A stretch of 63,970 nucleotides of DNA, counting the filler. It is 9 parts of 9 records of this genome, joined end to end, with 100 filler letters (N's around TTAATTAATTAA, not from the genome) between each part and the next. Parts side by side here need not be neighbours in the genome. Positions count along the whole stretch, not along the records: positions 1 to 14,095 come from SRR31147125_56031; 8 more parts are not named here. One strand, given 5' to 3'. Below the pieces are notes generated by a model. That model saw only the letters and a program-made list of their open reading frames with translations. It did no database searches and was not told the origin of the DNA. The position numbers and the translations under genes were made by a program. Below, piece by piece: positions 799-16,190 of this stretch. The first letter of the stretch is position 1. Every line of letters begins with the position of its first letter.

Positions 799-813
799 CC
801 TTCGCATCCTCCG

Positions 814-1620
814 CTACAGCCCTTTCTCGAGCTGCCTGACGGAAAAATAAGATTCCTGCAGGTCCTGGTTCATCAGCACGTTGTTCCAGATCAGCTTTGT
901 ACTGTGCAGTGTGCGCTTGCTCCGCGTGGTCTTGATCCACCGTTCGGTCGCGACCCAGACGCCGTCGAACTGCTCGAGTTTTTTCACTTCCATGTACTTG
1001 ACCTTCTTCGCCTCCTTCAGGACGTGGATGGCGCGTACCTCGAAGAAGATATCCTGCCGGACGAAGATGATCGACTTGGAGTACCCGTAACGATCCTCCA
1101 CCTCCTCGGAGACCGGTACGGCCTCCACCAGCCAGACCTTGTGCCCGTCCACCTCGTCCTCCTTGAGGATCTTGTAGTTCCACTCGTCCACTACGCGCCG
1201 GGTCATGTCGGCATAGGAGAAGTCGGAGCCCATGAATGCGGATGATTTGTCCGACGTGGCGATCCGCTTTGTCTTACGCAGATCGGGGAGGTAGAGCCAC
1301 TGGTCGTCGTCTTTTTCGCCGCTGTAATAGTCATAGGTCAGGAAACCGGTATCCTTTACATCCGCCGGGGAGAGGAAGAACTGCAGCCGCATCGTGTCAT
1401 CACCCTTGTCCTTGCTGAATACCTTCATGTCGCGGCGGCGTTCGCTGCCGTTCTTGTCGATCAGGATCATCACAGAGTCGACGATCATATTGTCGCCGTC
1501 GTCGCGTGCGTCTACCTGCTCCATGACCCAGCGGCCATCAACGTCAGCCGCGTGAACGTGGCCGGCGGCCAGCAGCGCAGCGATAATGACAAGTGCCCAG
1601 GATACTCTTCTGATCTTCAT
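814..1620 (-). CDS. Outer membrane lipoprotein-sorting (LolA-like) periplasmic protein
   Basis: Signal peptide, then FLSPADVKDTGFL, DDQWLYLP, KRIA, FMGSDFSYADM motifs. Start chosen at ATG 1620 with GAGGAG RBS (ORF track 814..1752). Confidence 0.85.
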   Translation of the reverse strand: MKIRRVSWALVIIAALLAAGHVHAADVDGRWVMEQVDARDDGDNMIVDSVMILIDKNGSERRRDMKVFSKDKGDDTMRLQFFLSPADVKDTGFLTYDYYSGEKDDDQWLYLPDLRKTKRIATSDKSSAFMGSDFSYADMTRRVVDEWNYKILKEDEVDGHKVWLVEAVPVSEEVEDRYGYSKSIIFVRQDIFFEVRAIHVLKEAKKVKYMEVKKLEQFDGVWVATERWIKTTRSKRTLHSTKLIWNNVLMNQDLQESYFSVRQLEKGL

Positions 1621-1648
1621 GATGGATCTCCTCGATACGTCGTTCATC

Positions 1649-4117
1649 TCAGTCGCTCCCCTCTTTCCCGACAACCAGCCGCAGCAGGGCAGGGGCCATG
1701 AAGAAGTTGGAGAGCAGGGCCAGGATAATGATGATGCCGGTGTACAGGCCAAACTCGAACAGGTTGTTCATGTGTGAGAACATGAAGATGAAAAAACCGA
1801 TGGACAGCACCACCGATGTGGTCAGCAGCGCCCGGCCCACGGTGGTGAGCGAGGCGTGTACCGCCATGGCGATGTCTCCGCTCTGAGCGTGGTACTTGCG
1901 AAAGTTGGTCATGAAATGAATGGTGTTGTCTACCGACAGACCGATCGCGATTGACCCGACCAGCATCGTGAACATGTTGAGCGGGATGGAGCACCAGCCG
2001 ATGATCCCGAGCACGGTGATGATCGGCGCGAGGTTGGGAAGCATGCTGAGCAGGCCGAGCCGCACCTCGCCGATCAGCAGGACCATCAGCATGGTAACGA
2101 CGACGATCGCGATGCCGTAGCTCTGGGCCGCCGAATAGATCGATGCGTGAATGATTCTGCCGAACAGAGACATGATCCCGGTAACCGTCACGGTGAAGCT
2201 TTCCCTGTCGGAAAATTTTGTATCGCTGAACTCGGAGCGGAACCGCTGCTCCACGTCCTCGATAAAGGAAACATAGCGCAGTGCGTCGAACCACGGCACT
2301 TTGAATGAGATACGCGCCTGCCTGAACTGGGAATCCACCACGTCCTTGAGGTCGTCTGATCCTGAGTTCTCGAACAGCAGCAGTTCCTGGGGGATCAGCC
2401 GGGCGTTTTCGGGGATTTCGTAAAATTCGGGCCGGTTCTCGTGAAGCGCCTGGTGGATCTCCTTGATCATCATCGTGAGTGAGAGGGTCTTGCCGACAAA
2501 CAGATCGTTGTCCCGGTAATCGTCTTCGATGGCGGCGCTCAGCTCTTCCATTGCGAGCAGGACGTCGCGATCGTAGAGTCCGTTTTCCTCTCCGGTGTCG
2601 ACGATCATCTCGAGCGCCACAGTGCCGCGCAGGTTGTGATCGATCACCTCGGTGGCCCGGCGTACGTCCAGGTCTTCCGGAAGCCACGTCAGCACGTTGT
2701 GGGAGAAATGCACCCTCGTCAGACCGACGATGCCGACCCCGACGATTACCAGTGACAGCACGAGGATCGGCCGATACCCGCGCACCGAGAAGTCGGCGAT
2801 CCAGCTCAGCAGGCGATCCATCCTGCTCATCCTGCTCACACTGCCAGAGTCGAGGGGATCGGCCGGTGCAGGTTCGACAGGCCGGATCTTCAGCGGCCAG
2901 AGCGAGAGGGCGGCGGGCAGAAAGAGAAAGGTGTAGATCAGCGCGATGATCACCCCGACGGAGGAGAAGATCCCGAGATCCGCGATCGGGGCGACCTTCG
3001 CCATCGCGAAGGAGGCGAGGCCTGCGGCGGTTGTCAGGGTGGTCATCACCAGCGCGAGGCCGGCATGGGAAAAGGCCTCGACGATCGCGTCGTTTCGGGC
3101 CATGCCGTTGCGCAGGTTCAAAAAGGTCAGCGCGAGGATGTGCACGGAGTCACCGACACCGACCGCGAGCAGGAAGGAGGGGAGGATCGTTGTCGGCAGC
3201 TTGAACATCGTGCCGGTGGCGGACATCATTCCAAGTGTGGCGACAATGGTCAGCCCCACTACCAGTAGAGGGAGGACGACACCGCCGACCCGCCTGAACA
3301 TGACAAACAGGCAGACCGCTATCGTGAGCACCGCAAGCTTCATGAACCGTTTGATATCCTGCATCATGAAGGCCTTGAGCGTTTGGGTAATCACCTGGGT
3401 GCCGGCCACATGGACGCGAAAATTCTCGCTGTCGTAGGAGGACGCGATCTCCTTGATCACCTCCACGGTACGGGTCGACTCGGCATCGCTGAGATATTCG
3501 GGAAGCTCATCTGCACCCGACTGCATGATGTCTTCGTCGAAGCCGGAGAGCAGGTCAGCTTCGTCGCCCGTGTCGGCGTAGACTGCGCTCTCGACGACGA
3601 TGGCGGTCATTGTTCCGTCTTCGGAAATGAGCATGTTGCGGTAGAGCGGGCTGGCCATGACCAGCTCTTTCAGCGCGGCAAGTTCCTCGGGGGTGTCGGG
3701 GAAGTCGGCGAGCAGGTCGTCCACATGGAGGACGTCGCCTTCACCGCGGGTATTTCTGACATTGACCAGCGACGTGATATCCTGGAGGTGGGGTACGTTT
3801 TCTTCGAGATCCTCATGGAGTTTCTGCAGCTTGCGGAGAAACTCGACGCTGAAGACCGCGTCGCTGTGGATCGCGATGGCGGTCATGTCGTCGCGGCCGA
3901 ACTGGTCGCGAAACTCGTTGTAGGTGGTGAGGATCGGATCGTCCTCGTGCAGAAAGCTCTCGTTCGACGTGTCGATCTGAAGGCTCTTGATCTGCGACAC
4001 TGCCAGAACCGTGCACGCGAGGATCGCCAGCAGCACGGGAATACGAAAACGGATAACCTGTCGGGTCATCGAACCGAACAGTTTTTCCAACTTCACCTGA
4101 ATACGCCGTTTATTCAC
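1649..4117 (-). CDS. MMPL/RND-family transporter
   Basis: Two TM bundles with GVGDSVHI and GLSVDNTIHF motifs and two large periplasmic loops. GTG start at 4117 with AAGGAGG RBS, overlapping the tetR 3' end. Confidence 0.9.
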   Translation of the reverse strand: MNKRRIQVKLEKLFGSMTRQVIRFRIPVLLAILACTVLAVSQIKSLQIDTSNESFLHEDDPILTTYNEFRDQFGRDDMTAIAIHSDAVFSVEFLRKLQKLHEDLEENVPHLQDITSLVNVRNTRGEGDVLHVDDLLADFPDTPEELAALKELVMASPLYRNMLISEDGTMTAIVVESAVYADTGDEADLLSGFDEDIMQSGADELPEYLSDAESTRTVEVIKEIASSYDSENFRVHVAGTQVITQTLKAFMMQDIKRFMKLAVLTIAVCLFVMFRRVGGVVLPLLVVGLTIVATLGMMSATGTMFKLPTTILPSFLLAVGVGDSVHILALTFLNLRNGMARNDAIVEAFSHAGLALVMTTLTTAAGLASFAMAKVAPIADLGIFSSVGVIIALIYTFLFLPAALSLWPLKIRPVEPAPADPLDSGSVSRMSRMDRLLSWIADFSVRGYRPILVLSLVIVGVGIVGLTRVHFSHNVLTWLPEDLDVRRATEVIDHNLRGTVALEMIVDTGEENGLYDRDVLLAMEELSAAIEDDYRDNDLFVGKTLSLTMMIKEIHQALHENRPEFYEIPENARLIPQELLLFENSGSDDLKDVVDSQFRQARISFKVPWFDALRYVSFIEDVEQRFRSEFSDTKFSDRESFTVTVTGIMSLFGRIIHASIYSAAQSYGIAIVVVTMLMVLLIGEVRLGLLSMLPNLAPIITVLGIIGWCSIPLNMFTMLVGSIAIGLSVDNTIHFMTNFRKYHAQSGDIAMAVHASLTTVGRALLTTSVVLSIGFFIFMFSHMNNLFEFGLYTGIIIILALLSNFFMAPALLRLVVGKEGSD

Positions 4118-4751
4118 CGTGGCCCTCCTTGTTGTTATTCTCAATCCCGCCCAGCCCGTCGAGAAAGAGCCCGGTGACGAGATCGGCGTACTGGTCGAGG
4201 AATTCTTCCTTGAGCCCCGGCGGGTTGACCGTCTCGATGACCGGTGCGAACAGGAAGCGGGAGCTCATCATGGAGACCAGCATCGGCCCGATTACAACCG
4301 GCGAGACGACGATGGAACGGGTTTCCTTCAGGGGGGTGCAGATCTCGTCCTTGATGACCACCATCATTTTCCGCGCCCACTGGGCTTTGTACTCCGTGAT
4401 TTCCGGGTCTTCGTGCGGCAGTTCGGTGAGGACGATGATCAGGGATTCCCGATTGTCCCCGAAGTACTCGATCGCGTGACGGATGAAGACGCGCAGCTTC
4501 TCCTCGGGCCGCTCCGGTCCGCACAGGTGACGCTGCACGAGGCGTGCATAATCGCTGAAGAACGATTCGAGAATCTCCGTGAGCAGCCCCTTCTTCGACC
4601 CGAAGAAATAGTTGATCATCGCGAGATTTACCCCGGCATCCGCTGCGAGTTCACGCAACCCGGTTGCGGCGAACCCCTTTCTGGCAAACAAGGTCACGGC
4701 TGTTGTGAGGATCCGCTCCCTTGTGTCGCTTCCTTTCCTGGTTTGTTCCAT
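4110..4751 (-). CDS. TetR/AcrR-family transcriptional regulator
   Basis: N-terminal HTH (TRERILTTAVTLFARKGFAATGLRELAADAGVNLAMINYFFGSKKGL). ATG 4751 has a GGAGA RBS and lies downstream of the predicted promoter. Confidence 0.92.
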   Translation of the reverse strand: MEQTRKGSDTRERILTTAVTLFARKGFAATGLRELAADAGVNLAMINYFFGSKKGLLTEILESFFSDYARLVQRHLCGPERPEEKLRVFIRHAIEYFGDNRESLIIVLTELPHEDPEITEYKAQWARKMMVVIKDEICTPLKETRSIVVSPVVIGPMLVSMMSSRFLFAPVIETVNPPGLKEEFLDQYADLVTGLFLDGLGGIENNNKEGHGE

Positions 4752-4767
4752 GAGTCTCCGAGCATAG

Positions 4768-4839
4768 TTAAACGATTGTTTGATTAATGGTATCCCCACA
4801 GCGGACTGGTGTCAAGCAGATAATCAAACGATTGTTTAG
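4768..4839. promoter_or_regulatory. Two putative TetR operators flanking the promoter
   Basis: Imperfect palindromes TTAAACGATTGTTTGA (4768-4783) and TCAAACGATTGTTTAG (4824-4839) share the core AAACGATTGTTT. Confidence 0.65.
4787..4815 (-). promoter_or_regulatory. Sigma70-type promoter for the tetR-MMPL-lolA-DUF1302 operon
   Basis: Minus strand TTGACA (4815-4810), 17-nt spacer, TACCAT (4792-4787). Confidence 0.7.
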
Positions 4840-5042
4840 ATTTTCTTTGGCCATTATGAAAACTCATTTGTCTCCACAAGGCGAGAGAAGAATACCCTAC
4901 GATAAATACATTGTTTTTGGAAATTCTATTAGGTAGTCTCGTTTGCTAGGTATTGCCGTAGGAGCATCCTTGTCGCCGATATACAATATATCCGACTTTG
5001 ATTGCTCTTCTACCTCACCACCCTACTTGATTACTCTATGGA

Positions 5043-8000
5043 GTGAACACATTGAGACAGAAACAGTCCATACTACCGACGAACTGGCGGACCGTTCGAG
5101 TGTTTATCTCGTCGACATTCCAGGATATGCATGACGAGAGAGATCATCTTGTAAAATTTGTTTTTCCGGAATTGAAAAGCAAACTGCGCACGCACCGGAT
5201 ACATCTGATTGATGTAGACCTTCGATGGGGAGTAAGCGAACAGGATGCTGAGAGTGGGCGAGCGCTGGATATCTGTCTGGATGAAATCGATGCGTGCAGA
5301 CCATATTTCGTATGTTTTCTCGGGCATCGATATGGTCATATCCCACGAGGGCACTCCCACTCCATAACAGCTCAGGAAGTCTATCACGGTGTCCTTCACA
5401 AAGGCGTACCCCGTCAGATTGTAGATCTGGACCGAATAATCGATGGTCGTTTCGAGGGGATTGTATTAACTCAACAGCAAATCGATTGCCTGAGGCGGAG
5501 TTATTGTTGGCAGGCAGATAAAGCTAAATATTTGATTCTTGATACCGTCACCGAGAAGGACTATGCAATAATTCGTGAAGTTTTCAAGCGATACTATGCC
5601 TATCAACGTAACCGCAGTCTTTTCTTTTTCCGTTCAAAAAGTCTCTCCACAAAACTTTCAGAAGAAAGGGGCGCTCTGTTCTTTGATTCAGATCCGCTTC
5701 TACAGGAGCGGATGAGAACGCTCAAGCAAACCATCAGGGAACAAAACATTATCTGGTATGAATACGATGATGTGGAAGCAGTTGGTGAAGAAATCAGTGA
5801 ACTTCTCTTCAAAAAAATCATGGAAGAGGATACCCAGTCGATCTCGGAAGAGCACAAAACGTGGGTGGAAAGTGAGAACGAATTACAAGAACTTTTTGTC
5901 ACCAATTGTACGAGGCATTTTGTAGGACGGAAGGATCTGATGGGACAATTGCATTCGTTTGTAACGAGCGAGGATGCGCGTAAAATCATGTTGATTGATG
6001 GAGATCCAGGGATCGGTAAATCCGCCCTGCTGGCGAATTTTGAAAGAAGGATCGCTCACGAATTCCCGGACTGGATAATTCTGTCTCACTTTGTTGGTGC
6101 ATCCCCGGATTCTACCCGCCTGAGAGAAACCTTATACCGGTTATATCTGTCGCTTTCGAAAGAGGAAGAAGGCGAGGTGGAGATTCCGGACACTATCGAA
6201 GAATTGAGTTCTTTGTTTTCCTCAACGGTGACTGAACGTTCCGCCAGTACACAAATTGTACTTATTGTCGACGGATTGAACCAGCTACATTCGCTGGACC
6301 AGAACCATGCGATGAGGTGGATTCCGGAGAGAATCTCTGGTCATGTGAAAATAATCCTCAGCGGGCTTTCGGCGGAGATGCAGACAAAACTCCGGACATA
6401 CAGTCCCTTGCCGGAGAAATTTGAAGTTTGTTCTCTAAAAGACTATGATATCGAAGAGATGGTGTCGTCTTACCTTGGAGAAATCAGACGAGAGTTTCCT
6501 ACCCCTGAGATTGAAGCGGCTTTTTTTGAAAAAATCAGAGCCGGACATCCGCTGTATATAAAAGTTGCGCTGGAAGAATTACGATTGCATGGACACTTCA
6601 AAGAGTTGTCAGAACGTATCGGACAGTTCCCGAACACCCTGGCAGAACTGTTTGACCAGGTGTTGCAGCGGATTGAATCTGATATCGATCCCGCTCTGGT
6701 ACGTGAATCTATGTCGCTTATCGCATGCGGCAGATATGGGATGAGGGCCGAAGAATTACAGTCGTTACTGGCCGATTTCGGCCCTGAAGGATCTTCCTCT
6801 GAGGGGGTGGAAAAATTACCCGATATGATGTGGGCTCGTTTATATCGAGCCTTCGGCTCATATTTGTTCGAACGTTCCGAGGTGATTGATTTTTTTCATG
6901 GCCAGCTCAAGGAGGCCGTCGAAGCGCGCTACTTGTCTGCAGATCCTGATCGTAGAAGGTATCATCTGAAAATCGCAGAGTATTTTGAGCAACGATGGAA
7001 AGAGCCATATCTGAGAGCGTTGGACGAGCTCCCGTATCAGCGTGTTGAAGCCGGAGATATCAATGGATTGTCACGGGTGCTGATGAATCTGGTATTCATA
7101 GAAGAGAAGTGTTCCCACCAGATGGCCTGGTCGCTGATGAATGACTTCCAGCATATCTCTTCTGCACATATTGTGAAACCTCCACTTTGTACCGTTCGGG
7201 TAAAGCCCGGCGAGCCGGTGCAATCTAAATCCTCTGAATCTGTTTCTCCTGGCGATAACAGAGTCTCTGGAGAGTACGGTTTCTTCTGCCCTTTCTGTCT
7301 CGCCTGGAGCTCGGTTGATGCTTCCGAGTTAGGGGCGATTATCACATGCCCCGCGTGCACCGCCCAATTACAATTAAACACGTTCACCATTGAATCTGAC
7401 TGGCAGCCGACAGAACCAGTTCTAGAGGTAAGTAATCTAACGGAAAATACCAAGCTTCACGTTCCTGAGGTTGTCGTCACATTCGCTGATTTTGTCAAAC
7501 GTCACATTGATATCATCGCCGATCATCCCTCTCTCACACTCCAGCAAGCAGCAAATGAACCAGAGGATTCGCCGCTTGCGTTCGCTGCAAGCGAGTCAAT
7601 GAGGGAAAACCCCTCCAATCGCGCCTGGTTCAGATGGCGGAATAAACCAAACAATACAAGTGCCAGTGAGATAACACTGAGAGGGCATACTGACTGGGTG
7701 TATGATTGCGACTACTCCCCGGACGGGTACACCATTGTCTCTGTTTCCGCAGATAAATCGATCAGGCTCTGGGATTCAACTACCGGGGAAACCATCAGCC
7801 TGATTGACAATCAAGAGGATCGCGTGAGGGCGTGCACCTTCTCTCCGGATGGACAACGTATCGCAACACTTCAGAAAAACAGAGTCGAAATGTGGGACAG
7901 GTCTTCCGGCCGGAAGATTAGCTCTTTGGCTGATCATTCTAACAGCCTTTATGCCTGCAGTTTTTCTCCGGATGGGGGGCGGATAGCAGCCGGTGGTGCC

Positions 8001-8474
8001 GATAAAACTGTGAAAATCTGGGACCTCAATACGGGAGAGGTTCTCAATACCATTCACATGTATACCTCAGAGCAGTTAAGCGGAGTTTGGAGCCTGTACA
8101 CTGATGACATAAAAGTTGTCCAGTACTCACCAGACGGTAGCCGGATTCTTGTCAGTTCAGGGTTTGACGAGAATGCCCTGAGAGTTTATGATTCCCATAC
8201 CGGAGAGAAACTGGTTGGTTTTGGGAGCCATGGTTATAATCAGAATTTTCAATGCGCAGCATTTTCACCTGACGGCACGAGGGTCGTTTCTGTGTCGAGT
8301 AAAGGGCCTGCTAAAATATGGGATGCCTGGAGCGGAGAACTGATTTCTGATCTGCCTCACTTTGATGGTAATGCTGAGGCCTGCGCATATTCCCGGATGG
8401 GCGCTATATTCTGGTTGGAAAAAAGTCTCTGTATGTGTGGTCGGCCGACTCACTGCTCTTTCTCGGAACACTGA
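5043..8474 (+). CDS. DUF4062-NACHT/STAND NTPase-WD40 protein (TEP1/NLR-like), N-terminal part; frameshifted near 8392
   Basis: VRVFISSTFQDMHDERD...DLRWGV...CLDEID...FLGHRYG (DUF4062); Walker A GDPGIGKS (6000-6023); Walker B LIVDGLNQL; CPFC..CPAC Zn ribbon; WD40 repeats from ~7670. Adding one C at CCC 8392-8394 restores YSPDGRYILVGKKSLYVW and joins the next ORF. Confidence 0.88.
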   Translation: MNTLRQKQSILPTNWRTVRVFISSTFQDMHDERDHLVKFVFPELKSKLRTHRIHLIDVDLRWGVSEQDAESGRALDICLDEIDACRPYFVCFLGHRYGHIPRGHSHSITAQEVYHGVLHKGVPRQIVDLDRIIDGRFEGIVLTQQQIDCLRRSYCWQADKAKYLILDTVTEKDYAIIREVFKRYYAYQRNRSLFFFRSKSLSTKLSEERGALFFDSDPLLQERMRTLKQTIREQNIIWYEYDDVEAVGEEISELLFKKIMEEDTQSISEEHKTWVESENELQELFVTNCTRHFVGRKDLMGQLHSFVTSEDARKIMLIDGDPGIGKSALLANFERRIAHEFPDWIILSHFVGASPDSTRLRETLYRLYLSLSKEEEGEVEIPDTIEELSSLFSSTVTERSASTQIVLIVDGLNQLHSLDQNHAMRWIPERISGHVKIILSGLSAEMQTKLRTYSPLPEKFEVCSLKDYDIEEMVSSYLGEIRREFPTPEIEAAFFEKIRAGHPLYIKVALEELRLHGHFKELSERIGQFPNTLAELFDQVLQRIESDIDPALVRESMSLIACGRYGMRAEELQSLLADFGPEGSSSEGVEKLPDMMWARLYRAFGSYLFERSEVIDFFHGQLKEAVEARYLSADPDRRRYHLKIAEYFEQRWKEPYLRALDELPYQRVEAGDINGLSRVLMNLVFIEEKCSHQMAWSLMNDFQHISSAHIVKPPLCTVRVKPGEPVQSKSSESVSPGDNRVSGEYGFFCPFCLAWSSVDASELGAIITCPACTAQLQLNTFTIESDWQPTEPVLEVSNLTENTKLHVPEVVVTFADFVKRHIDIIADHPSLTLQQAANEPEDSPLAFAASESMRENPSNRAWFRWRNKPNNTSASEITLRGHTDWVYDCDYSPDGYTIVSVSADKSIRLWDSTTGETISLIDNQEDRVRACTFSPDGQRIATLQKNRVEMWDRSSGRKISSLADHSNSLYACSFSPDGGRIAAGGADKTVKIWDLNTGEVLNTIHMYTSEQLSGVWSLYTDDIKVVQYSPDGSRILVSSGFDENALRVYDSHTGEKLVGFGSHGYNQNFQCAAFSPDGTRVVSVSSKGPAKIWDAWSGELISDLPHFDGNAEACAYSRMGAIFWLEKSLCMCGRPTHCSFSEH

Positions 8475-9856
8475 AAAGTGACTCAGCCAGTATGAATTCC
8501 TTTTGTTTTTCTCCCGATGGTCACCAAATCGCTGCTGCTACGTATAACCACACCCTGCGAGTGATCCCAATGGCAGCCCTTGAATGTGATCGGTCAGAGT
8601 CTGATTCGAATAGCCTGGATAAAATGTACGGCGTCTCACCTGATGGTAAGTACCTGTTATGTGAACAAGAAGGGCGCCTCAATGTCTGTTCTCCGGAAAA
8701 CGGGAGTTTGATTCGTGAGTGGGCTGGAAGGATGAAAGATGTCGCAACATACAATTGGTCTCCTGATGGCAGTCAAGTAATCCTGGGCTCAGGTGAGGGA
8801 GACGAAGGGTTTAAAATTTTTGACAATGGGTCAGGATATGAAGTGAGCCAATTTGCTATCCCTAAATCTGACACAGAGGATGATCCTGACGTAGAGATGT
8901 CCCAGCGAGTCTGGGCAGGTTTGCGCCGAAAAGCACAATTTTGCCACTATTCCCCTGATGGCAGCGATCTGCTTCTTGCATTCTGGGAGCCGTTCCTGCG
9001 GATAGTGGAATGTCGTACCGGAAAACAGCGAATGCTCTTGGAAGGTTTACCGGGAGGCCTCCTGGGAAATAACCGATCATGTTGTTACTCCCCTGATGGC
9101 AGGCGGGTAGTCGCCGGTTGCCAGGCAGACAAACTCTTTGTCTGGGATGCAGATACTGGAACGGTAATAACTGAGCGAGAAACCAGCCAGTCTCAATGCC
9201 GTTATTCACCAGATGGTCGTACGATGGCAACTATCTCCCATGATGGCGGGTCAAAACCCTGGTCCGTCAAGGTTTGGAACATGCGGACATATACAGTGTC
9301 CCACACTCTATATGAATCTTCAGCGAGACTCACGGATTGTATGTTTACCCCGGATGCCCAGTGTATAGTAGCCTATGGAGATGACAATATAGTGAGAATG
9401 TGGGAGGTTGTGACAGGGAAACTGATTGGTCTCTATGTTGCCAGAAACAAATTGAATAATGTGATTGTAATCAAGGGGGGCCTGGAGGTCGTTTTGCATA
9501 GCGATAGAGATGGACTGGTGCTTCTGGATCTATGCAACCTTGAACCTGATGCATTGTTCGTAACTGCAACTCGCCTTTTTTCACCACTACTTGGAACCTG
9601 GGACCTAGAGGTTACTGGCCGCTGTCAGTGGTGTGGAAATTTGTTTCCAGTTCCTGACTATATTCTAGAATGTATCCAATCTCTAACCAACCATCTACAA
9701 GACGGCCAGTCTCCATGCGAAGCTTTACCTGATAGCGCCTGGGAAGATCCTTCCCTCAAGACGAATTGTCCTCATTGCAAACATCCGTTACGCTTTAATC
9801 CTTTTAAGGTCGACAAGGATGACAATATAGTATCAGAGTTTGGAACTCTTCATTGA
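8435..9856 (+). CDS. WD40 repeats plus C-terminal Zn ribbon; C-terminal part of the frameshifted STAND protein
   Basis: Six xSPDG motifs plus FTPDA; CQWC...CPHC. Continuous with the upstream ORF after a +1 C repair (fused ~1604 aa, 5043-9856). Confidence 0.85.
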   Translation: MWSADSLLFLGTLKSDSASMNSFCFSPDGHQIAAATYNHTLRVIPMAALECDRSESDSNSLDKMYGVSPDGKYLLCEQEGRLNVCSPENGSLIREWAGRMKDVATYNWSPDGSQVILGSGEGDEGFKIFDNGSGYEVSQFAIPKSDTEDDPDVEMSQRVWAGLRRKAQFCHYSPDGSDLLLAFWEPFLRIVECRTGKQRMLLEGLPGGLLGNNRSCCYSPDGRRVVAGCQADKLFVWDADTGTVITERETSQSQCRYSPDGRTMATISHDGGSKPWSVKVWNMRTYTVSHTLYESSARLTDCMFTPDAQCIVAYGDDNIVRMWEVVTGKLIGLYVARNKLNNVIVIKGGLEVVLHSDRDGLVLLDLCNLEPDALFVTATRLFSPLLGTWDLEVTGRCQWCGNLFPVPDYILECIQSLTNHLQDGQSPCEALPDSAWEDPSLKTNCPHCKHPLRFNPFKVDKDDNIVSEFGTLH

Positions 9857-10320
9857 TCCTTAACCCCAGAGCTGAAAGAAACTCCCCGACTATGTCGTCA
9901 GCCACTGTACAATTATACCCCACCCCTGCTGTCCGGGCATTAATAGGGAACAAGGCGGGCCAGATACTTCTCTTGAAGCGTGCAAACACTGAATATGGCA
10001 ATAACCTCTGGTGCCTGCCCGGAGGGAAAGTTGATGTTGGGCAGACGGTTGAAGAAGCCCTTGAGAATGAGCTCTCGGAGGAACTGTCAGTCAGGCTTGT
10101 TTCGGCCCGGTTTTTCTTCTACCAGGATAGCCTGCCCATGGAACCGGGTGGGCTTCATTTCATTAATTTCTATTTCCACTGCGAAGTAGAAGGTGAACCG
10201 GTCATTAATGAAGAGTCTTCGGATTTTGCGTGGGTTGGGTCTGAAGAACTGAGTGACTATAAAATTACATTCAGAAACGACGAGGCCATTCACCGTCATT
10301 TTGTCCCAAACCTTACCTGA
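9853..10320 (+). CDS. Nudix hydrolase
   Basis: ILLLKR...WCLPGGKVDVGQTVEEALENELSEELSV (variant Nudix box). TTG start overlaps the upstream stop; ATG 9892 is an alternative start. Confidence 0.88.
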   Translation: MILNPRAERNSPTMSSATVQLYPTPAVRALIGNKAGQILLLKRANTEYGNNLWCLPGGKVDVGQTVEEALENELSEELSVRLVSARFFFYQDSLPMEPGGLHFINFYFHCEVEGEPVINEESSDFAWVGSEELSDYKITFRNDEAIHRHFVPNLT

Positions 10321-10343
10321 ATAGTGTCTTATAAGAGGATACA

Positions 10344-12962
10344 ATGGATAGCAATAATACTGCTTATTTAAAGGATATGGTTACTGAGCAGGTCCGTATA
10401 TTCACTCAGAACCGTGCCGGTTTTAAGGAATTACAAAATGTTATTATCGGCACCCTGCAAAATAAAGCAGGCGGGTTGCCGGGGGCTCCTCTTATCCATG
10501 GCCGGGTAAAGCAGATAGATAGCTTTGCAGAGAAGTGCATTCGCAAATGCGAAAAGTATGCAAAACCCGCCTGGCAGCTGACTGATCTGTGCGGAGTCCG
10601 GGTGGTGGTCAACTCCCTGGACGCCATTCCCGCTGTCCGCAAATGTATCGAAGATACGTTTCTGATTCTTGAAGACGAAGATACTTCCGTGCGGTTGGGA
10701 GATATGGAATTCGGTTATCAGTCCATTCATTATATCGTCGCACTCGATCCCGACAAAAGCAGTCACTACTCAACAACCGGCACACGTATTCCCAAGAAGT
10801 TGTTTGCTGCACGCACCGGCAGTCAGGCCCTGAAGGAATCACTTCCTGCCGGACCCAGGTTCAAGGCGGAAGTCCAGGTGCGGTCACTCCTGCAGCATGC
10901 CTGGTCGGATGCGGTTCACGATAATCTCTATAAAACCGAGATGAAAAACAAGCCACAGCATCTGCTGAGGGAGTCAGCATTGGTGGCAGCTCTCCTCGAG
11001 GAAGCGGACAAATCGATTGTTACCTTGAAGGGAGGGGCGGATCAATACCGGTCATATTACGGCGCGTACATGACTCCCGGGGAAATGGAACAAGAGATAG
11101 CAATACAGAGAATTATTCTGGCACATAACCCCGGAAATAGAAATGCCGCGCTGAAGATCGCTCGGCTGTCTGATTGCCTGGGATCGGAGGCGGATACCAA
11201 GAGCGTGGAAAAAGATCTGGCCCCGTTTGAAAAATCCGGGGATGCAGCAATACTCAGGGAATTGGGGATGGTTCGTCTGAGGAATGGGAAAAAGGTGACG
11301 GGAAGAAAGAATATTGAAAAATCGACAGAGATGCACCCTGAAGACCCGGACACATGGTGCGAGCTCGGCCTGGCCTATTTCCAGGCAAAGGACTACAGCC
11401 GGGCACTTACATACTATCAGAAGGCATTTGAGGTCGATCCTGACTACCCGAGAGCCCTGATGCGTTTTATCGAGTGCAAAATCCTCGACGGCAGTGACGG
11501 GACCCTTGAGTTTCTGCCGCTTATCAAACAAAATCTCGAACGCGCAATGGATATTTCATACCGGAGAATCGCTGCGGGAGTTCATATGCCTCATGCCTGG
11601 TACGATATAGGATTCTTCGCATTGCTCCTCGACAGGGTAGACGAGAGTCTTGAAGCCTACGGCAAGGCAATTTTGAGCACTCTGTCGGGTGCTACGGTTG
11701 AAGGCGTATATAATTCGCTTACCTCTATTCATCGGAAAATTCGCCAGAAGAATATCGCGCTTAACGAGGGCATAAGGCTTGTCAGGTCATATCTGTGCGT
11801 TGTGCTTGTTGGCAGATTCAACAGGAAGCCCCATGCCTATCTGACGAAATGCGATGCCGAGCTCGATGGGTTCAGCACATTGTCACCTTGTACGCGAGAT
11901 AAAAAAAGATCGACCTATAAAAAGGGAAGGCCGATAGTCATTGTCGCCGGCTCATGCTCCCATGCGTCCGAAAATGTCCTGAGCGGATACACTGAGATTC
12001 TCGAAGAGGTCTTTGCCGGGTTTAACGGAATCATCTGCTGTGGTGGGACCGATGCCGGGATATCACGCATCATCGGCAATCTTGGTGGATTGGGTGGTCA
12101 GGCTGTCAGGTTGGGATATTTGCCCCAAAATGAAATCTGTATGGAAGGATATGAGTGTATCCATACCTCATCCGGCTCTTTCAGCGTCTATGAACCGATT
12201 ATGATGTGGAGTGACCTGCTCGTCAGCGGTATTGCCCCCAACTCCATACGGGTTATGGGAATTGGCGGAGGAAGGGTGGCTGCGATGGAATATCAGCTGG
12301 CCCTGTTGCTGGGGGCTCAAGTTGGGATTCTTGCCGACAGCGGACGGGCGAGCAATAAAATACTTGATGATGGCGACTGGATTTCGATATCTGCGGTGCC
12401 GGCTCATTCCGACGTACCACGGAAACAGCTGCTGAGCCTGCCGGCGGATATTGAGACACTTCGTTCATTCATCTACCCGCCGTTTCAGTCAAAACTTATC
12501 GACGAAGCTGATCGGGAAGCGATTGCAGAAGGGATGCACGAGAAATATACCGGCCAGATGAAGAAAGAAGTAGCCGATAAATTGCAAAATCTTGCGCCAT
12601 GGGAGGAGCTCAACAATACGTTCAAATCATCCAATTACGGATTCGTTGATCACGTCGATCAAAAGCTTGCGCGATTAGATCTTACCTTGCAAAAAGTTTC
12701 TGATACGAAGATCAGGCTTTATACATTTTCAGAAACCGAGATAAGAAAACTGGCGGAGATGGAACATGGCCGTTGGGTAAATGAGCGCCTTGAAGATGGC
12801 TGGAGGCTGGGGGAGCGTGACGACCAGAGGCGGACCCGGCCACAACTGATATCCTGGAAAGATCTTGACGACAATGAAAGAAAGAAGGATGTCAGAGCGG
12901 TAAAGGCGCTTCCGGAAATTCTCGCTGCAAAGGGGTATGAAATCGTACCGATAAAAAAGTGA
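10344..12962 (+). CDS. RelA/SpoT-type alarmone synthetase domain fused to TPR, SLOG-like and RyR domains
   Basis: GRVKQIDSFAEK, DLCGVRV, GYQSIHY, EVQVRSLLQHAW...HDNLYK (synthetase); TPR PDTWCELGLAYFQAKDYSRALTYYQKAFEVDP; SLOG-like IVIVAG..CCGGTDAGI..GIGGGRVAAMEY; RyR LAEMEHGRWVNERLEDGWRLG..LISWKDL..ERKKD. AAGAGGA RBS. Confidence 0.85.
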   Translation: MDSNNTAYLKDMVTEQVRIFTQNRAGFKELQNVIIGTLQNKAGGLPGAPLIHGRVKQIDSFAEKCIRKCEKYAKPAWQLTDLCGVRVVVNSLDAIPAVRKCIEDTFLILEDEDTSVRLGDMEFGYQSIHYIVALDPDKSSHYSTTGTRIPKKLFAARTGSQALKESLPAGPRFKAEVQVRSLLQHAWSDAVHDNLYKTEMKNKPQHLLRESALVAALLEEADKSIVTLKGGADQYRSYYGAYMTPGEMEQEIAIQRIILAHNPGNRNAALKIARLSDCLGSEADTKSVEKDLAPFEKSGDAAILRELGMVRLRNGKKVTGRKNIEKSTEMHPEDPDTWCELGLAYFQAKDYSRALTYYQKAFEVDPDYPRALMRFIECKILDGSDGTLEFLPLIKQNLERAMDISYRRIAAGVHMPHAWYDIGFFALLLDRVDESLEAYGKAILSTLSGATVEGVYNSLTSIHRKIRQKNIALNEGIRLVRSYLCVVLVGRFNRKPHAYLTKCDAELDGFSTLSPCTRDKKRSTYKKGRPIVIVAGSCSHASENVLSGYTEILEEVFAGFNGIICCGGTDAGISRIIGNLGGLGGQAVRLGYLPQNEICMEGYECIHTSSGSFSVYEPIMMWSDLLVSGIAPNSIRVMGIGGGRVAAMEYQLALLLGAQVGILADSGRASNKILDDGDWISISAVPAHSDVPRKQLLSLPADIETLRSFIYPPFQSKLIDEADREAIAEGMHEKYTGQMKKEVADKLQNLAPWEELNNTFKSSNYGFVDHVDQKLARLDLTLQKVSDTKIRLYTFSETEIRKLAEMEHGRWVNERLEDGWRLGERDDQRRTRPQLISWKDLDDNERKKDVRAVKALPEILAAKGYEIVPIKK

Positions 12963-12972
12963 TATGAAAGAA

Positions 12973-13018
12973 GGTGATCTGACAAAAAACGCCACCGGCA
13001 GTTGTTTGTCAGATCACC
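12973..13018. terminator. Inverted repeat between convergent genes; probable terminator
   Basis: GGTGATCTGACAAA (12973-12986) pairs perfectly with TTTGTCAGATCACC (13005-13018). Confidence 0.6.
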
Positions 13019-13053
13019 AGTGACCGAATATCGACCCGATCGAGCTGCATCCG

Positions 13054-14085
13054 TCAAACCGCCTCATCTCGCAGCAGCAACTCACTCATTACTGCCTTCC
13101 GCACATCCTCCGCCAGGCGATCCTTGATCACATGGTAGAAGTCGCTGTACGGGACCAGGTGTTTCTGGCACAGCGCCAATTCGTGGGACAGATAGGTTAT
13201 TGCGTAGTATTGTCTGTGGTCATCATCGCAGTGGATCAGATAATCGATGATCTGGTGTCTTCGCAAAATTCCTATATAGAGTGTGTCGAGCTTCTTGAAA
13301 TCTGAGGCATCCTGGTCCTGCCGATTTCGACTCAGGTTGGCGAGCACCATCTTGTTGAGCGCCTCTCCGTTCGGTGAGAAAAGACCGGTGGCGATATAGG
13401 CATCTGTGCCGTCCGAATCGAAATAGACGCATTCGACCTGGTTATAGGAGATATGGATGTTTCTCTTTATCGCCAGTGCCACATCCGGGTGTGTGATTAT
13501 CCTGTTGAGCTTCTCCAGAAACTCCTTTTCAACCGGTGAAATGCTGCGGGTTCCGAGAAGCCTGGTTTGTGGGGTGAGCGATTGTTCGCTGACGATGCGT
13601 CTTTTGACGAGGTCCTTGATTTTTTCCTGATCTCCCTGGATCGTGTCCAGGTTGACGACATCTTCAAAAATGGACAGAAACAGGTCGTCGTAAAATTGCG
13701 GTGCGCCGTTGTTGATGCGGCATTTCTGCGGCAATACAATGAAGTCATGCTTGAACCGGCCCCCTACCCAGCGCAGGTTTTTCCGGTCGGGTGAGAAATA
13801 CAGAGGGAGTCCTTCCGTTAATTCAGTGACAAGATCCCGCAGCGAATAACGCGTGGTCTTACCGTTGAGCCGATATACTTTTGCGTCTGCCAGCTTTTTC
13901 AACACGAAGTCATTTTTTCCGACTGCATGGGACGGTTGTTTCAGGTAGGCTGCGAGTTGTTTGCGGAGGATGTATTGATTGGCGAGGATCTTTTCGTCGT
14001 CATCTTCTTCGTCGAGCTCTTTACTCAGTTCGATCATCAGCACATCCGCCAGTACCCGCACCATTTTGGAGTAGTTGTGGTCCAT
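13054..14085 (-). CDS. Hypothetical protein (343 aa), possibly 5'-truncated by the contig end
   Basis: Long open frame with globular composition and no motif recognised. Frame stays open to the contig end 10 nt upstream. Confidence 0.65.
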   Translation of the reverse strand: MDHNYSKMVRVLADVLMIELSKELDEEDDDEKILANQYILRKQLAAYLKQPSHAVGKNDFVLKKLADAKVYRLNGKTTRYSLRDLVTELTEGLPLYFSPDRKNLRWVGGRFKHDFIVLPQKCRINNGAPQFYDDLFLSIFEDVVNLDTIQGDQEKIKDLVKRRIVSEQSLTPQTRLLGTRSISPVEKEFLEKLNRIITHPDVALAIKRNIHISYNQVECVYFDSDGTDAYIATGLFSPNGEALNKMVLANLSRNRQDQDASDFKKLDTLYIGILRRHQIIDYLIHCDDDHRQYYAITYLSHELALCQKHLVPYSDFYHVIKDRLAEDVRKAVMSELLLRDEAV

Positions 14086-14095
14086 ACGGAAGGAA

Positions 14096-14195
14096 NNNNN
14101 NNNNNNNNNNNNNNNNNNNNNNNNNNNNNNNNNNNNNNNTTAATTAATTAANNNNNNNNNNNNNNNNNNNNNNNNNNNNNNNNNNNNNNNNNNNN
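14096..14195. other. Artificial contig spacer
   Basis: N44-TTAATTAATTAA-N44; stop codons in all six frames. Confidence 0.98.
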
Positions 14196-14837
14196 CGTTT
14201 CGCATCCAGTCCTTTTGCAGCTTGCTGTTGTCCTGCGGATCCTGCATGTCCAAAATCACAAATTTTTCATTATTTAAAAATTCCGGGCTGATTTTACCCA
14301 CATCGGCCAATGGATGGTTTTTATGGACGACGGCACAGGAGGGGCTCGAATCTAAAAGCAGCAGGCTGATATCATCACGATCCTGATACGGATACGGTGA
14401 CGAAAAAACGATATCAATCAGGTCATTGCTGAGTGCTTTGAAAAGCGCCTTGTTACTGTCCTGTCGGATCGACAATTCTATGTTTGGATACGCACGTCGG
14501 AATTTAGACAGAATACGGGGCATTATGATCGGTTCGTAAGGGCCCCAGTATCCGATTCGAAGGACACCGTCCATGCCTGAAGATGTGCGTTGAATTTTTT
14601 GACAGCCTCGTCAAATTTGGCAACAATGATAATTGCCTCATCATAGAATATGCGACCGGCCGGTGTGAGCCTGACGCTGCGGTTATTGCGGTCAAAAAGC
14701 TTCGTGCCCAGCTCTTTTTCCATGGTACCAATAATTTGGCTCATGGATGGCTGGGCGATATGGTGTTCCTGCGCGGCTTTCGTAAAATTTAGGAATTTTG
14801 CAACGCTGAGGAAATATTTCAAATGTTGAATATCCAT
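14196..14837 (-). CDS. LysR-family regulator (frameshifted, 3'-partial)
   Basis: MDIQHLKYFLSVAKFLNFTKAAQEHHIAQPSMSQII HTH. One extra base in the T6 run at 14595-14600 joins it to GVLRIGYWG (substrate-binding domain). Confidence 0.88.
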
Positions 14838-14956
14838 AGCTGTCACCAGTCCAGTTAACTCAATTATTGGATTTACCTATCGGATTTTTCGTTTAAAAAA
14901 GCTGATATTTATAATATTATCTCGAAATTTTATAAATATTATAATATAATATGCGC

Positions 14957-14981
14957 ATATAATAGGTAAAACCTATTATAT
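14957..14981. promoter_or_regulatory. LysR-type binding site (T-N11-A palindrome)
   Basis: ATATAATAGGT-AAA-ACCTATTATAT, perfect 11-bp arms, in the divergent lysR/dehydrogenase intergenic region. Confidence 0.7.
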
Positions 14982-15079
14982 CAAATAAATTTTGTATTTT
15001 ACAGAACTTTTTGATGGGTATAAACTAAAAAAGTTAAGCCACGTATTTATTTTTATAATGAGGAGAAGGAGGGAACATA

Positions 15080-16190
15080 ATGGCTGATATTCCTAAAAAG
15101 TGTAAGGCTGCGGTTTTGTCCGAATATGGGAAACCTCTTGAAATACGCGAGGTTCCAATACCCCCGGTGGAAGATGGAGCGATATTGGTAAAAGTTGAAC
15201 TGGCGGGCATTTGCGGCTCCGACATACATATAGCAAGCGGTAATCTGGGCATCAAAGCACCGATGCCGTTTATCATGGGGCATGAGACAATCGGGCGTAT
15301 CGTCAAGCTGGGTAAAGGACGCGTACACGACGCGGCGGGCGAAGCACTTAGAATCGGTGACCGTATCATGTGGGCGCATGCCGACTGTTATGACTGCTAT
15401 TACTGCAACATCCTGCGCAAGCCGATGCTTTGCGAGCACCGGCGCGGGTATGGCATGTCGCCGCTGAATATGCTGATGGGTGGATTTTCGGAATATGAAT
15501 ATGTTATTCCCGTCACGAAAGTCGTCAAAATCCCCAGTGAGCTGACGGAGGAAGAATCCATCGGTGTGGCCTGCGCATTTCGAAGTGTCGTCGCCGCGTT
15601 TGAAAAGCTGAATGGCATCGGGCTGGCCGATAGTGTCGTCATCCAGGGCGCGGGGCCGATCGGCCTGTACTCGACTGTGCTGGCACGAGAGTCCGGCGCA
15701 GGACAAATCATTGTCGTCGGCGCGCCGTCAGAGCGGCTGGAGCTGGCTAAAAAATGGGGCGCAGACACGGTCATTAATATTGATGAGGTAAAAGATCCGC
15801 TCGAGCGCAAGGCGCAGATACTTCAAATGACGAAGAACAGAGGCCCGGAACTGGTCGTGGAATGTTCCGGCTATCCATGCGGCCTTCAATGAAGGCGTCG
15901 ACATGGTGCAAAAGGGTGGACGGTATCTGATCGTCGGGCAGACATCTCCGTCGCAGATCACGTTCAACCCGTATACGATCCTGCAGAAGAATATGCAGAT
16001 CATCGGCAGCGGCGGCGCGATCATCCACCATTTCTATAAGGCGCTGGAATTCATCAAACACAATAAAAATAAATATCCGTTTGGTGACATCGTCAGCAGG
16101 AAATACCAGCTGGAGGATATCAACGAGGCGCTGAGCAATATGAAGTCCGGCAAAGAGATCAAACCGGCCATCGACAACAGGGGACGGTGA
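15080..16190 (+). CDS. Zn-dependent alcohol dehydrogenase (MDR family), frameshifted near 15875
   Basis: GICGSD, GHE, CYDCYYC..C and GAGPIG motifs. The alternative frame AAFNEGVDMV continues into ORF 15903..16190. Confidence 0.88.

Follow-up and report, generated by a model that had tools for sequence, protein, structure and literature searches.

A three-gene locus encoding a DUF4062-NACHT-WD40 protein, a Nudix hydrolase and a RelA/SpoT-TPR-SLOG-RyR protein: a possible Thoeris-like signaling system with an alarmone-synthetase effector

What might three tightly packed, co-oriented genes do together when the first encodes a large sensor-like protein with a TIR-like domain at its N terminus, the second a Nudix hydrolase, and the third an alarmone synthetase fused to TPR, SLOG and RyR parts? 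The question is raised by positions 5043-12962 of a 63,970-nucleotide (nt) stretch of DNA (hereafter, the window), which consists of nine parts of nine records of one genome, joined end to end with 100 filler letters between parts; the three genes, referred to as A, B and C, lie in the first part (positions 1-14,095, record SRR31147125_56031). An initial annotation had read them as a candidate defense system in which A makes a nucleotide signal, C reads it, and B erases it. We observed a three-gene anatomy, set out below, and a recurrent linkage of C-type genes with Nudix and TIR/DUF4062 genes in other genomes. On these grounds, we propose with moderate confidence that A, B and C would form a Thoeris-like conflict system, probably antiviral, which signals through a nucleotide derived from nicotinamide adenine dinucleotide (NAD) and has an alarmone synthetase as its effector. 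The genes and their parts are as follows.

5043-9856 (+): gene A, a STAND protein with a DUF4062 domain (putative TIR-like NADase), a NACHT module and a double WD40 propeller; about 1604 amino acids (aa) if continuous
5097-5381 (+): DUF4062 domain of A, residues 19-113; PF13271, E 1.5e-17, 64 bits against a cut-off of 24.7
5919-7184 (+): NACHT-type STAND NTPase module of A; AAA_16 match at residues 293-422, extent taken from tblastn
7644-9520 (+): WD40 repeats of A, about 12 SPDG-type blades in two propellers; Pfam matches from about residue 868 through the second open reading frame (ORF)
8389-8392 (+): frame break in A, one C missing from a C-run (tCCCgg)
9853-10320 (+): gene B, a Nudix hydrolase; 155 aa with the TTG start at 9853, 142 aa with the ATG start at 9892
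10344-12962 (+): gene C, 872 aa, RelA/SpoT synthetase-TPR-SLOG-RyR
10344-11054 (+): synthetase domain, residues 1-237 of C; PF04607 at 53-199, 52.9 bits against a cut-off of 27
11076-11903 (+): TPR-like all-helical solenoid linker, residues 245-520 of C; TPR_1/TPR_2 matches at about 335-368, helices at 245-518 in the model
11934-12473 (+): SLOG domain of the TRPM (LSDAT) type, residues 531-710 of C; invariant GGT (567-569) and GG...E649 motifs
12504-12950 (+): RyR module, R12-like with two repeats, residues 721-869 of C; Pfam RyR (PF02026) at 788-867, 45.4 bits against a cut-off of 27.4

An ORF scan placed all three genes on the plus strand, A at 5043-9856, B from 9853 or 9892 to 10320, and C at 10344-12962. 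If B starts at the TTG at 9853, it overlaps the stop of A by 4 nt, the ATG at 9892 being an equally possible start, and the 23-nt gap between B and C holds the motif AAGAGGA 4 nt before the ATG of C. This spacing is as the initial annotation had described it, and its domain calls for all three proteins were borne out, by Pfam and, for C, also by structure models and fold matches. The residues that it had named are also all present, i.e., the Walker A lysine (K326) and E112 of A, D81 and E176 of the synthetase, and G567-G568-T569 of the SLOG domain, the last two sets being invariant in 26 sequences.

The Pfam matches of gene C include no HD hydrolase domain, and the nearest solved structures to its synthetase are small alarmone synthetases (SASs) of the RelP/RelQ type (2be3, 1.1e-6). 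Residues R54, K56, D81, G124, Y125, H129, E176 and Q178 of the synthetase are invariant in the 26 sequences, and the domain matches the PADLOC candidate model PDC-S33, where PDC presumably stands for phage-defense candidate. A model of full-length C (pLDDT, the predicted local distance difference test, 88.6; pTM, the predicted template-modeling score, 0.77) sets the limits of its four parts at residues 1-237, 245-520, 531-710 and 721-869.

The SLOG, LSDAT and SLATT families were reportedly defined by Burroughs et al. in 2015. No Pfam SLOG family matched C at E <= 0.01, while PF18171 (LSDAT_prok) was found on 12 of 50 listed relatives of C, all 28-34% identical. Residues 500-872 were therefore modeled as a SLOG-RyR unit with AlphaFold2 from an alignment of 37 homologous stretches, giving a mean pLDDT of 90.4 and a pTM of 0.90, with the SLOG domain at model residues ~29-215. 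This part of the model superposed on TM1055 (1rcu, Z 18.3, root mean square deviation 2.9 over 164 residues), on a Moco carrier protein (2iz5, Z 15.6), on the TRPM2 chanzyme 8sr7 (Z 14.3) and the TRPM2 domain 7aov (Z 13.6), on DprA (3uqz, Z 12.4), and on the SLOG domain of BcThsA with 3'cADPR, a cyclic ADP-ribose (cADPR) isomer (7uxs, Z 11.2; 7uxt, Z 10.9). Judged by the model, the SLOG domain in C is real despite the missing Pfam match.

When a profile of the SLOG-RyR part was compared with the PDB, the best 60 matches listed were all RyR, among them RyR2 (1e-33) and a RyR-like protein of B. thetaiotaomicron (3nrt, 2.9e-15), and the best Foldseek match of the RyR module was Repeat12 of human RyR3 with ATP (6uhh, E 3.6e-6). 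According to the structure titles, RyR3 Repeat12 was crystallized with ATP/ADP and TRPM2 with ligands of the ADP-ribose (ADPR) type. In the text available from a recent study, phage PF02026 proteins are reported either to cleave 2'/3'cADPR to ADPR via an H75/D117 dyad or to bind these signals with nanomolar affinity; in the phage protein RyDEP, W78 stacks on the adenine and H100 sits at the phosphates, and adenine ligands in RyR3 R12 are contacted by these residues too (PMC13232231). An hhalign comparison of RyDEP (DyoEdafos gp78) with C set H75, W78 and D117 opposite H808, W811 and D849 (probability 79.5%, E 1.5e-5); H808 and W811 are invariant in the C family, and D849 is nearly so. H100 of RyDEP falls opposite an Arg in C of the window and opposite a Ser in the family consensus, and a tblastn search of phage records with the RyR part gave four weak matches, DyoEdafos not being among them. 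The initial annotation had given the module no role; from these alignments, it is probably a second ligand site of the ADPR/cADPR type, which extends the reading of C.

Gene A encodes a STAND NTPase, with Walker A (GDPGIGK326S) and Walker B (IVLIVDG) motifs, between an N-terminal effector-type domain and C-terminal WD40 repeats. Two CxxC pairs follow the NTPase module (residues 749-772), and a CxxC...CxxC element lies at the C terminus (~9623-9778). Relatives number at least 336, are mostly 1400-1600 aa long, and carry PF05729 and PF24883; in the source records, some go by "telomerase protein component 1" and some by "DUF4062 domain-containing protein". The only named PADLOC defense model to reach A was Avs1b, by a weak, partial match (7.8e-9, 31 bits, 291 of 1924 profile positions). 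The initial annotation had called DUF4062 TIR-like, and this has since been shown: the accessible text of a preprint describes DUF4062 as a TIR-like NADase, activated by assembly and antiphage, whose products are ADP-ribose and nicotinamide, with a catalytic Glu at E97 in KpSwz and E1008 in TEP1 (10.64898/2026.05.01.722283). E112 of A aligns with the conserved Glu in the "SVTELEI" motif of the DUF4062 relatives that we fetched and is, by this alignment, the candidate catalytic Glu.

The record shows A as an ORF of 1143 aa at 5043-8474 and a second one of 473 aa, in another frame, at 8435-9856, and the initial annotation had spoken of a frameshift to be repaired. Intact homologues (1516-1686 aa) are colinear across the break in tblastn, in one frame to ~8402 and in another from ~8381. 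A Logan contig of a public sequencing run, X1, with a depth of 9, carries one extra C behind 8391 as its sole difference over 7400-9400; the run may be the source sample of the record, so that its contig is a separate assembly rather than independent proof of the DNA. Two other runs, X2 (share 0.08) and X3, gave no contig on this stretch, and no RNA run was listed. Because this contig restores the missing C, and because genes nearby are also split, we regard the break as probably an error of the record and A as intact at ~1604 aa, a length typical among its relatives.

Gene B matches Pfam NUDIX with 69.1 bits against a cut-off of 21.1, and the PADLOC candidate PDC-S07 at 2.8e-17. The Nudix box has the consensus GX5EX7REUXEEXGU. 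In an alignment of 61 sequences, B keeps E73, E76 and E77 (ExxEE), and Q64, N72 and S79 replace the consensus E, R and G. Most Nudix neighbors at other C loci have a canonical box, the deviant form GQ...E[NVA]EL.EELSV being confined to a small subclade made up of the window, L081, L001 and L078 (here and below, L numbers denote loci in other genomes). The neighbors also fall into two subtypes: 24 of the 61, the window's included, carry "...QDSLP...H(C/F)I" after the box, and the others are without those three residues. A proline ~15 residues after the box, likewise found in 24 of the 61 with the window's included, resembles a feature that may mark ADP-ribose pyrophosphatases; we give it no weight here. 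A complex prediction for the Nudix protein with residues 1-260 of C scored 0.00, below the threshold, and is uninformative either way.

Do C-type genes keep such company elsewhere? At least 43 full-length relatives of C were present in the protein collection, two of them (P0038 and P0040) with a fused Nudix domain. A search of 185,579 species genomes with C returned 279 hits, in bacteria and archaea and almost all in metagenome-assembled genomes, and a scan of metagenome contigs gave one locus, L081. Our neighborhood set comprised 81 loci, i.e., 80 from species genomes plus L081, and was analyzed by our own six-frame searches. A Nudix domain was found at 60 of these: less than 300 nt from C on the same strand in 44 (28 upstream and 16 downstream), in one open frame with C in 3, less than 300 nt away on the opposite strand in 3, and farther away in 10. 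Nudix was absent at the other 21, and at several of these C lies close to the end of its contig. DUF4062 was present less than 10 kb from C at 24 of the 81 loci, TIR_2 at 37, either at 50, and both at 11; the TIR_2 calls come from a local hidden Markov model, and all 10 of the matches checked were confirmed by Pfam. The TIR-like domain starts less than 300 nt from C at 14 loci and less than 3 kb away at 37. In the subset of 32 loci flanked by 8 kb or more on either side, 20 had a TIR-like gene and 25 a Nudix gene.

The arrangement of these genes varies. DUF4062-STAND genes abut B and C in at least five ways (A-B-C, B-C-A, C-B-A, A-C-B, and on the opposite strand), in loci assigned by their record titles to Verrucomicrobiota, Planctomycetota, Proteobacteria, KSB1 and further groups, and the same-strand overlaps or gaps there measure 4-36 nt. 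Alternative TIR_2 partners near C include TIR-NACHT, propeller-TIR, TIR-caspase, TIR-PEGA and TIR-FGE-sulfatase proteins, and some neighbors at related loci match TIR_2 and, weakly, ThsB_TIR.

To judge these neighbors against their genomes, TIR_2 and DUF4062 matches were counted genome-wide for several loci.

TIR_2, L008 (6.3 Mb): 1 match in the genome, 1 at the C locus
TIR_2, L063 (3.5 Mb): 1 match in the genome, 1 at the C locus
TIR_2, L061: 6 matches in the genome, 1 at the C locus
TIR_2, L027: 5 matches in the genome, 1 at the C locus
TIR_2, L068: 8 matches in the genome, 0 at the C locus (DUF4062 there instead)
DUF4062, L063: 1 match in the genome, 1 beside C
DUF4062, L019: 1 match in the genome, 1 beside C
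DUF4062, L075: 2 matches in the genome, 1 beside C
DUF4062, L059: 5 matches in the genome, 5 on the contig of C within ~26 kb
DUF4062, L068: 8 matches in the genome, 2 beside C

Since any particular single-copy gene would fall within a 22-kb stretch of a 3-6 Mb genome in well under 1% of cases, the linkage of C with TIR-like genes is real. The co-localization of homologues of the three genes that the initial annotation had called for was thus found, in varied orders and in many phyla, and the whole-genome controls agree with it.

Other genes recur beside C as well. Proteins of the TrkA_N-RyR type make up a neighbor cluster of 22 loci; all three that were checked by Pfam carry TrkA_N, and two also RyR. 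Sigma-54 activators with an AAA+ part (RtcR/PspF type) recur in cluster 9 (six loci, including L049:7804-9537; one member Pfam-confirmed), at L081:8533-10197, and at L112:10564-12321, where the protein matches the PADLOC model RtcR_PspF2 CARF_AAA_HTH at 1.9e-75 over its AAA part. At L008:7794-9515 and four further loci (cluster 10), a protein of ~540-740 aa lies just upstream of Nudix/C, and the one member tested had no Pfam or PADLOC match. The five DUF4062 matches of L059 (contig C51 of G407, a 2.2-Mb genome) form an array within ~26 kb upstream of C.

How does this assembly compare with systems already described? Apart from the weak, partial Avs1b match, none of the PADLOC models for named defense systems, those of Thoeris included, matched at the operon; since PADLOC otherwise yielded only the candidate singletons PDC-S07 and PDC-S33, no named system fits, as the initial annotation had expected. 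A literature search on PDC-S07 and PDC-S33 found only survey listings. The likeness to type I Thoeris is nevertheless close in outline: a predicted NAD-cleaving enzyme of the TIR superfamily is encoded beside a protein whose SLOG domain, which superposes on that of ThsA, would sense the product and thereby activate the effector fused to it. In contrast to Thoeris, the generator here is DUF4062 fused to NACHT-WD40 rather than ThsB (neither ThsB_TIR nor TIR_2 matches A), the effector is a RelA/SpoT synthetase rather than SIR2 or TM/Macro (no SIR2 was found by Pfam), and the SLOG domain is of the TRPM/LSDAT type and comes with an extra RyR module and a Nudix partner. The system is not a member of Thoeris, but it most likely works like it.

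With the small alarmone synthetases and toxSAS/CapRel, C shares a RelA/SpoT synthetase that lacks a hydrolase and has intact catalytic motifs. It differs in its ~630-aa sensor tail (TPR-SLOG-RyR) and in having a Nudix partner instead of a small alarmone hydrolase (SAH) or a protein antitoxin. In toxSAS-SAH pairs, a toxic synthetase is neutralized by a neighboring hydrolase, and the Nudix-C pair may be a parallel. Three modules for ADPR or adenine nucleotides (a TRPM-type SLOG, Nudix, and an R12-type RyR) are the same as those of TRPM2, its chanzyme relatives and Repeat12 of ryanodine receptors, which would point to a shared ancestry; here, however, they would gate an enzyme rather than an ion channel, and Nudix is usually a separate gene. 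RyDEP belongs to the same PF02026 family, its dyad and Trp aligning with C, but it is a 138-aa viral anti-defense enzyme or sponge, whereas in C the module belongs to a host protein, contains an internal duplication, and is joined to an effector.

Among DUF4062 NADases (Swarozyc KpSwz, NIR, Evangelion and the TEP1/NWD1 type), A shares the domain above the Pfam cut-off and, from the alignment with its DUF4062 relatives, probably the conserved Glu. The order DUF4062-NACHT-WD40 is that of human NWD1, NWD2 and TEP1 (10.64898/2026.05.01.722283), and TEP1-like proteins with NACHT and WD40 are also mentioned from bacteria (Evangelion preprint, 10.64898/2026.06.25.731849). Swarozyc and Evangelion are different, being short proteins with other auxiliary domains that deplete NAD+ after binding a phage portal (10.64898/2026.05.01.722283), and NIR is a further DUF4062 system (10.64898/2026.09.04.749371). 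The main text of the three DUF4062 preprints (Swarozyc/TEP1, NIR and Evangelion), so far as it was accessible, makes no mention of SLOG, Nudix or RyR. TIR, SLOG, Nudix and RelA do appear in accessible passages of two surveys, in general terms, as modules of NAD/ADPR and NTPase conflict systems (PMC9503650, PMC7159879). We found no paper that combines "alarmone" with "RyR domain", and no description of a RelA/SpoT-SLOG-RyR protein or of its TIR/DUF4062 link in the searchable literature, although the SLOG-defining study may well contain an earlier in silico depiction, and preprint supplements may list one.

The mechanism that we propose, each functional step of which we infer, would begin when the two WD40 propellers of A bind a trigger. 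Oligomerization of NACHT would then gather the N-terminal DUF4062 domains, which would start to cleave NAD+. Like characterized DUF4062 enzymes, they would yield ADP-ribose, while a canonical TIR partner at other loci could give a cyclic ADPR isomer. C would read this nucleotide via its TRPM2-type SLOG domain, its R12-like RyR module, or both, and the RyR module, with the His/Asp dyad of RyDEP, may either bind the signal or linearize it. Ligand binding would release the RelA/SpoT pyrophosphokinase to make (p)ppGpp, (p)ppApp or another pyrophosphorylated acceptor, and growth would stop. The Nudix enzyme would act as a brake, either by destroying the ADPR-type signal, like the NUDT9-type domains in TRPM2 chanzymes, or by destroying the pyrophosphorylated product, thereby replacing the HD hydrolase that long Rel enzymes have and C lacks. 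Such enzymes carry the HD domain N-terminal to the synthetase, and this matches the place of Nudix in the fusions, directly N-terminal to the synthetase.

Several observations weigh against this scheme, in particular against A as its fixed first component. The closest relative of the locus, L081 (C 73% and Nudix 77% identical), keeps Nudix, C and a GHKL-type gene but not A; it shares with the window only positions 9892-14094, and the ORF upstream is unrelated. A TIR-like gene is missing from the available flank at 31 of the 81 loci, and from 12 of the 32 with at least 8 kb on both sides. Across 401 genomes of one phylum, DUF4062 occurs in 68 and full-length C in one, so most DUF4062 proteins evidently work without C. 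For these three reasons, B and C are a portable core, and A is one among several interchangeable TIR-like partners. The three genes are thus not the obligate unit of the initial annotation, whose interpretation is partly supported: the anatomy and the co-localization stand, and A as the fixed generator does not, TIR_2 proteins of many architectures replacing it elsewhere. What is available of the DUF4062 preprint adds that characterized DUF4062 proteins execute by NAD+ depletion and not by making a signal, that TEP1 makes no other ADPR derivatives, and that NWD1, NWD2 and NPHP3, in which the domain has the same NACHT context, showed no activity when purified at full length (10.64898/2026.05.01.722283). 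TIR and STAND genes cluster with other conflict genes anyway, and on a rival account two independent systems lie side by side for that reason, A being a self-contained, NLR-like, NAD+-depleting executioner of the Swarozyc/TEP1 kind, and B and C another module, for toxin and antidote or for stress, in which Nudix neutralizes a toxSAS-like synthetase. The NAD+ depletion by characterized DUF4062 proteins, the counts from the 401 genomes and the lack of A in L081 would fit this; moreover, hundreds of relatives share the architecture of A, and the Nudix-C pairing is independent of the presence of a TIR-like gene. We consider this account unlikely while giving it real weight, as four genomes have their sole TIR_2 or DUF4062 match beside C, the recurrent neighbors are specifically TIR-like, Nudix and RyR proteins rather than a general defense mix, the two sensor domains of C have relatives that bind exactly the products of TIR-type enzymes, and the short same-strand overlaps and gaps look operonic.

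Further points speak against the ligand chemistry and the antiviral role of a Thoeris-like system. In the subclade to which B belongs, three positions of the Nudix box deviate from the consensus, and the nearest solved relatives of B are NudI and MutT, not ADPR pyrophosphatases. In the portion of the RyDEP study that was available, six of eight homologues with the conserved residues bind without cleaving (PMC13232231), and the dyad in the RyR module of C consequently proves nothing on catalysis. The flanks hold TetR, MMPL, LolA-like, dehydrogenase and racemase genes, with no obvious defense island. Such metabolic surroundings would suit a physiological regulator, in which C ties the NAD+/ADPR or adenylate state to alarmones in dormancy, stress or development, Nudix tunes the ligand or product, and the STAND/TIR proteins are regulators as in multicellular or social prokaryotes. 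So would the hosts, which by their record titles are mostly environmental Planctomycetota, Chloroflexota, Desulfobacterota, Verrucomicrobiota and archaea, the recurrence of RtcR/PspF-type sigma-54 activators and TrkA_N-RyR proteins as neighbors, and the account by Kaur et al. 2020 (PMC7159879) of conflict systems built on NTPases in multicellular prokaryotes, where RelA, TIR, SLOG and Nudix serve as effector or signaling modules. A sporadic distribution (the 279 hits among all species genomes), variable partners and gene order, and the matches to PADLOC defense-candidate models make such a role rather improbable, and all characterized bacterial DUF4062 and TIR-SLOG systems are antiphage. The frame break in A, a truncated GHKL-type gene and other split genes nearby could also mean that A is a pseudogene in a decayed or chance arrangement whose genes no longer cooperate. 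This we judge very improbable: the X1 contig restores the frame of A by one C, with no further difference in 2 kb, neither B nor C is broken and their catalytic and ligand residues are invariant, and the linkage recurs widely.

Does the link between RyR modules and TIR-like enzymes extend beyond C? We examined all 14 loci, from the same 401 genomes of one phylum, whose proteins share only the RyR module with C. A TIR or DUF4062-STAND gene lies beside the RyR protein at seven of them (L112, L113, L114, L115, L117, L119 and L125); of the remainder, L116 has a Nudix-RelA_SpoT fusion, four have nothing, and two are on contigs of at most 2.8 kb. These RyR-only proteins carry either AAA (AAA-RyR, ~870-1077 aa) or TrkA_N (TrkA_N-RyR, ~600 aa). 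The fusion at L116:9382-10629 (+) is 416 aa long, without SLOG or RyR, matches both PDC-S07 and PDC-S33, and directly follows a 1067-aa protein that ends in two RyR modules. At L112, two DUF4062-NACHT genes flank the AAA-RyR gene, and at L117, a SLATT_1 protein lies between the TrkA_N-RyR protein and a TIR-WD40 giant.

A broader reading, which we offer tentatively and hold to be possible but doubtful, is that TIR/DUF4062 NADases of prokaryotes would signal in a large class of systems, so far undescribed, that have the RyR (R12) module as their shared receiver and RelA/SpoT-SLOG-RyR, AAA-RyR and TrkA_N-RyR proteins among their effectors. In C, a cADPR-type signal would be linearized or captured by RyR, ADPR would be read by the TRPM-type SLOG, and Nudix would then clear it. 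The modules of C might thus be bacterial precursors of those by which ADPR and cADPR control the TRPM2 and ryanodine-receptor calcium channels of animals, here coupling NAD-derived immune signaling to alarmones.

Two features lie directly downstream of C.

12973-13018 (.): inverted repeat, arms 12973-12990 and 13001-13018, 18 nt each with 94% complementarity, 10-nt loop
13054-14094 (-): GHKL/HATPase_c_3-type remnant, 343-346 aa, 5'-truncated; the full-length form has 744 aa

The initial annotation had closed the operon with a 14-bp hairpin; the hairpin is there, with arms longer than stated. It lies 3' of C between convergent genes and may act as a terminator. No T-run follows its arms, and a terminator scan did not list it for that reason. 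The "terminator-like" site that was found at 10129-10154, inside B, is coding sequence and was treated as chance. The GHKL-type remnant aligns with residues 402-743 of an L081 protein (phmmer, E 7.8e-191; 82% identity by tblastn), whose full-length, Pfam-annotated gene (L081:3901-6132, minus strand) is the convergent neighbor of C there; because homology ends abruptly at 14094, we take the gene in the window to be 5'-truncated. GHKL-like proteins also lie less than 10 kb from C in L074 and L080, and the link of this gene type to the B/C system is uncertain.

The G+C content of the operon (0.485) equals the window mean (0.481), and the left flank alone is richer (0.587); composition therefore gives no island signal, and a compositional island at the operon was ruled out. 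Directly right of the end of synteny with L081, positions 14095-15050 are AT-rich (G+C 0.36 against a window mean of 0.48). Scans for tRNAs and Rfam families gave no match. Farther along, a LysR gene at 14140-14846 (-) has its HTH_1 and LysR_substrate domains in different frames, a zinc alcohol dehydrogenase gene at 15080-16190 (+) is split over two frames, and an arginyl-tRNA synthetase gene at 31012-31665 (-) is represented by its C-terminal 216 aa only. Together with the missing C at 8391, the split genes suggest either an indel-prone record or a decaying genome.

The proposed system is specific, widespread and directly testable, and its linkage is strong enough to justify cloning. If the proposal is true, it would join NAD-derived TIR signals with (p)ppGpp-type alarmones, two fields of nucleotide signaling that have so far been studied apart, and it would give a function to host-encoded RyR-domain proteins, of which only phage versions have been characterized, in 2026. 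DUF4062-NACHT-WD40 proteins, which in bacteria resemble human NWD1 and TEP1, would then be generators of signals and not only depleters of NAD+, and the handling of ADP-ribose-type ligands by the SLOG, Nudix and R12 domains of TRPM2 and ryanodine receptors could be studied in a tractable bacterial model.

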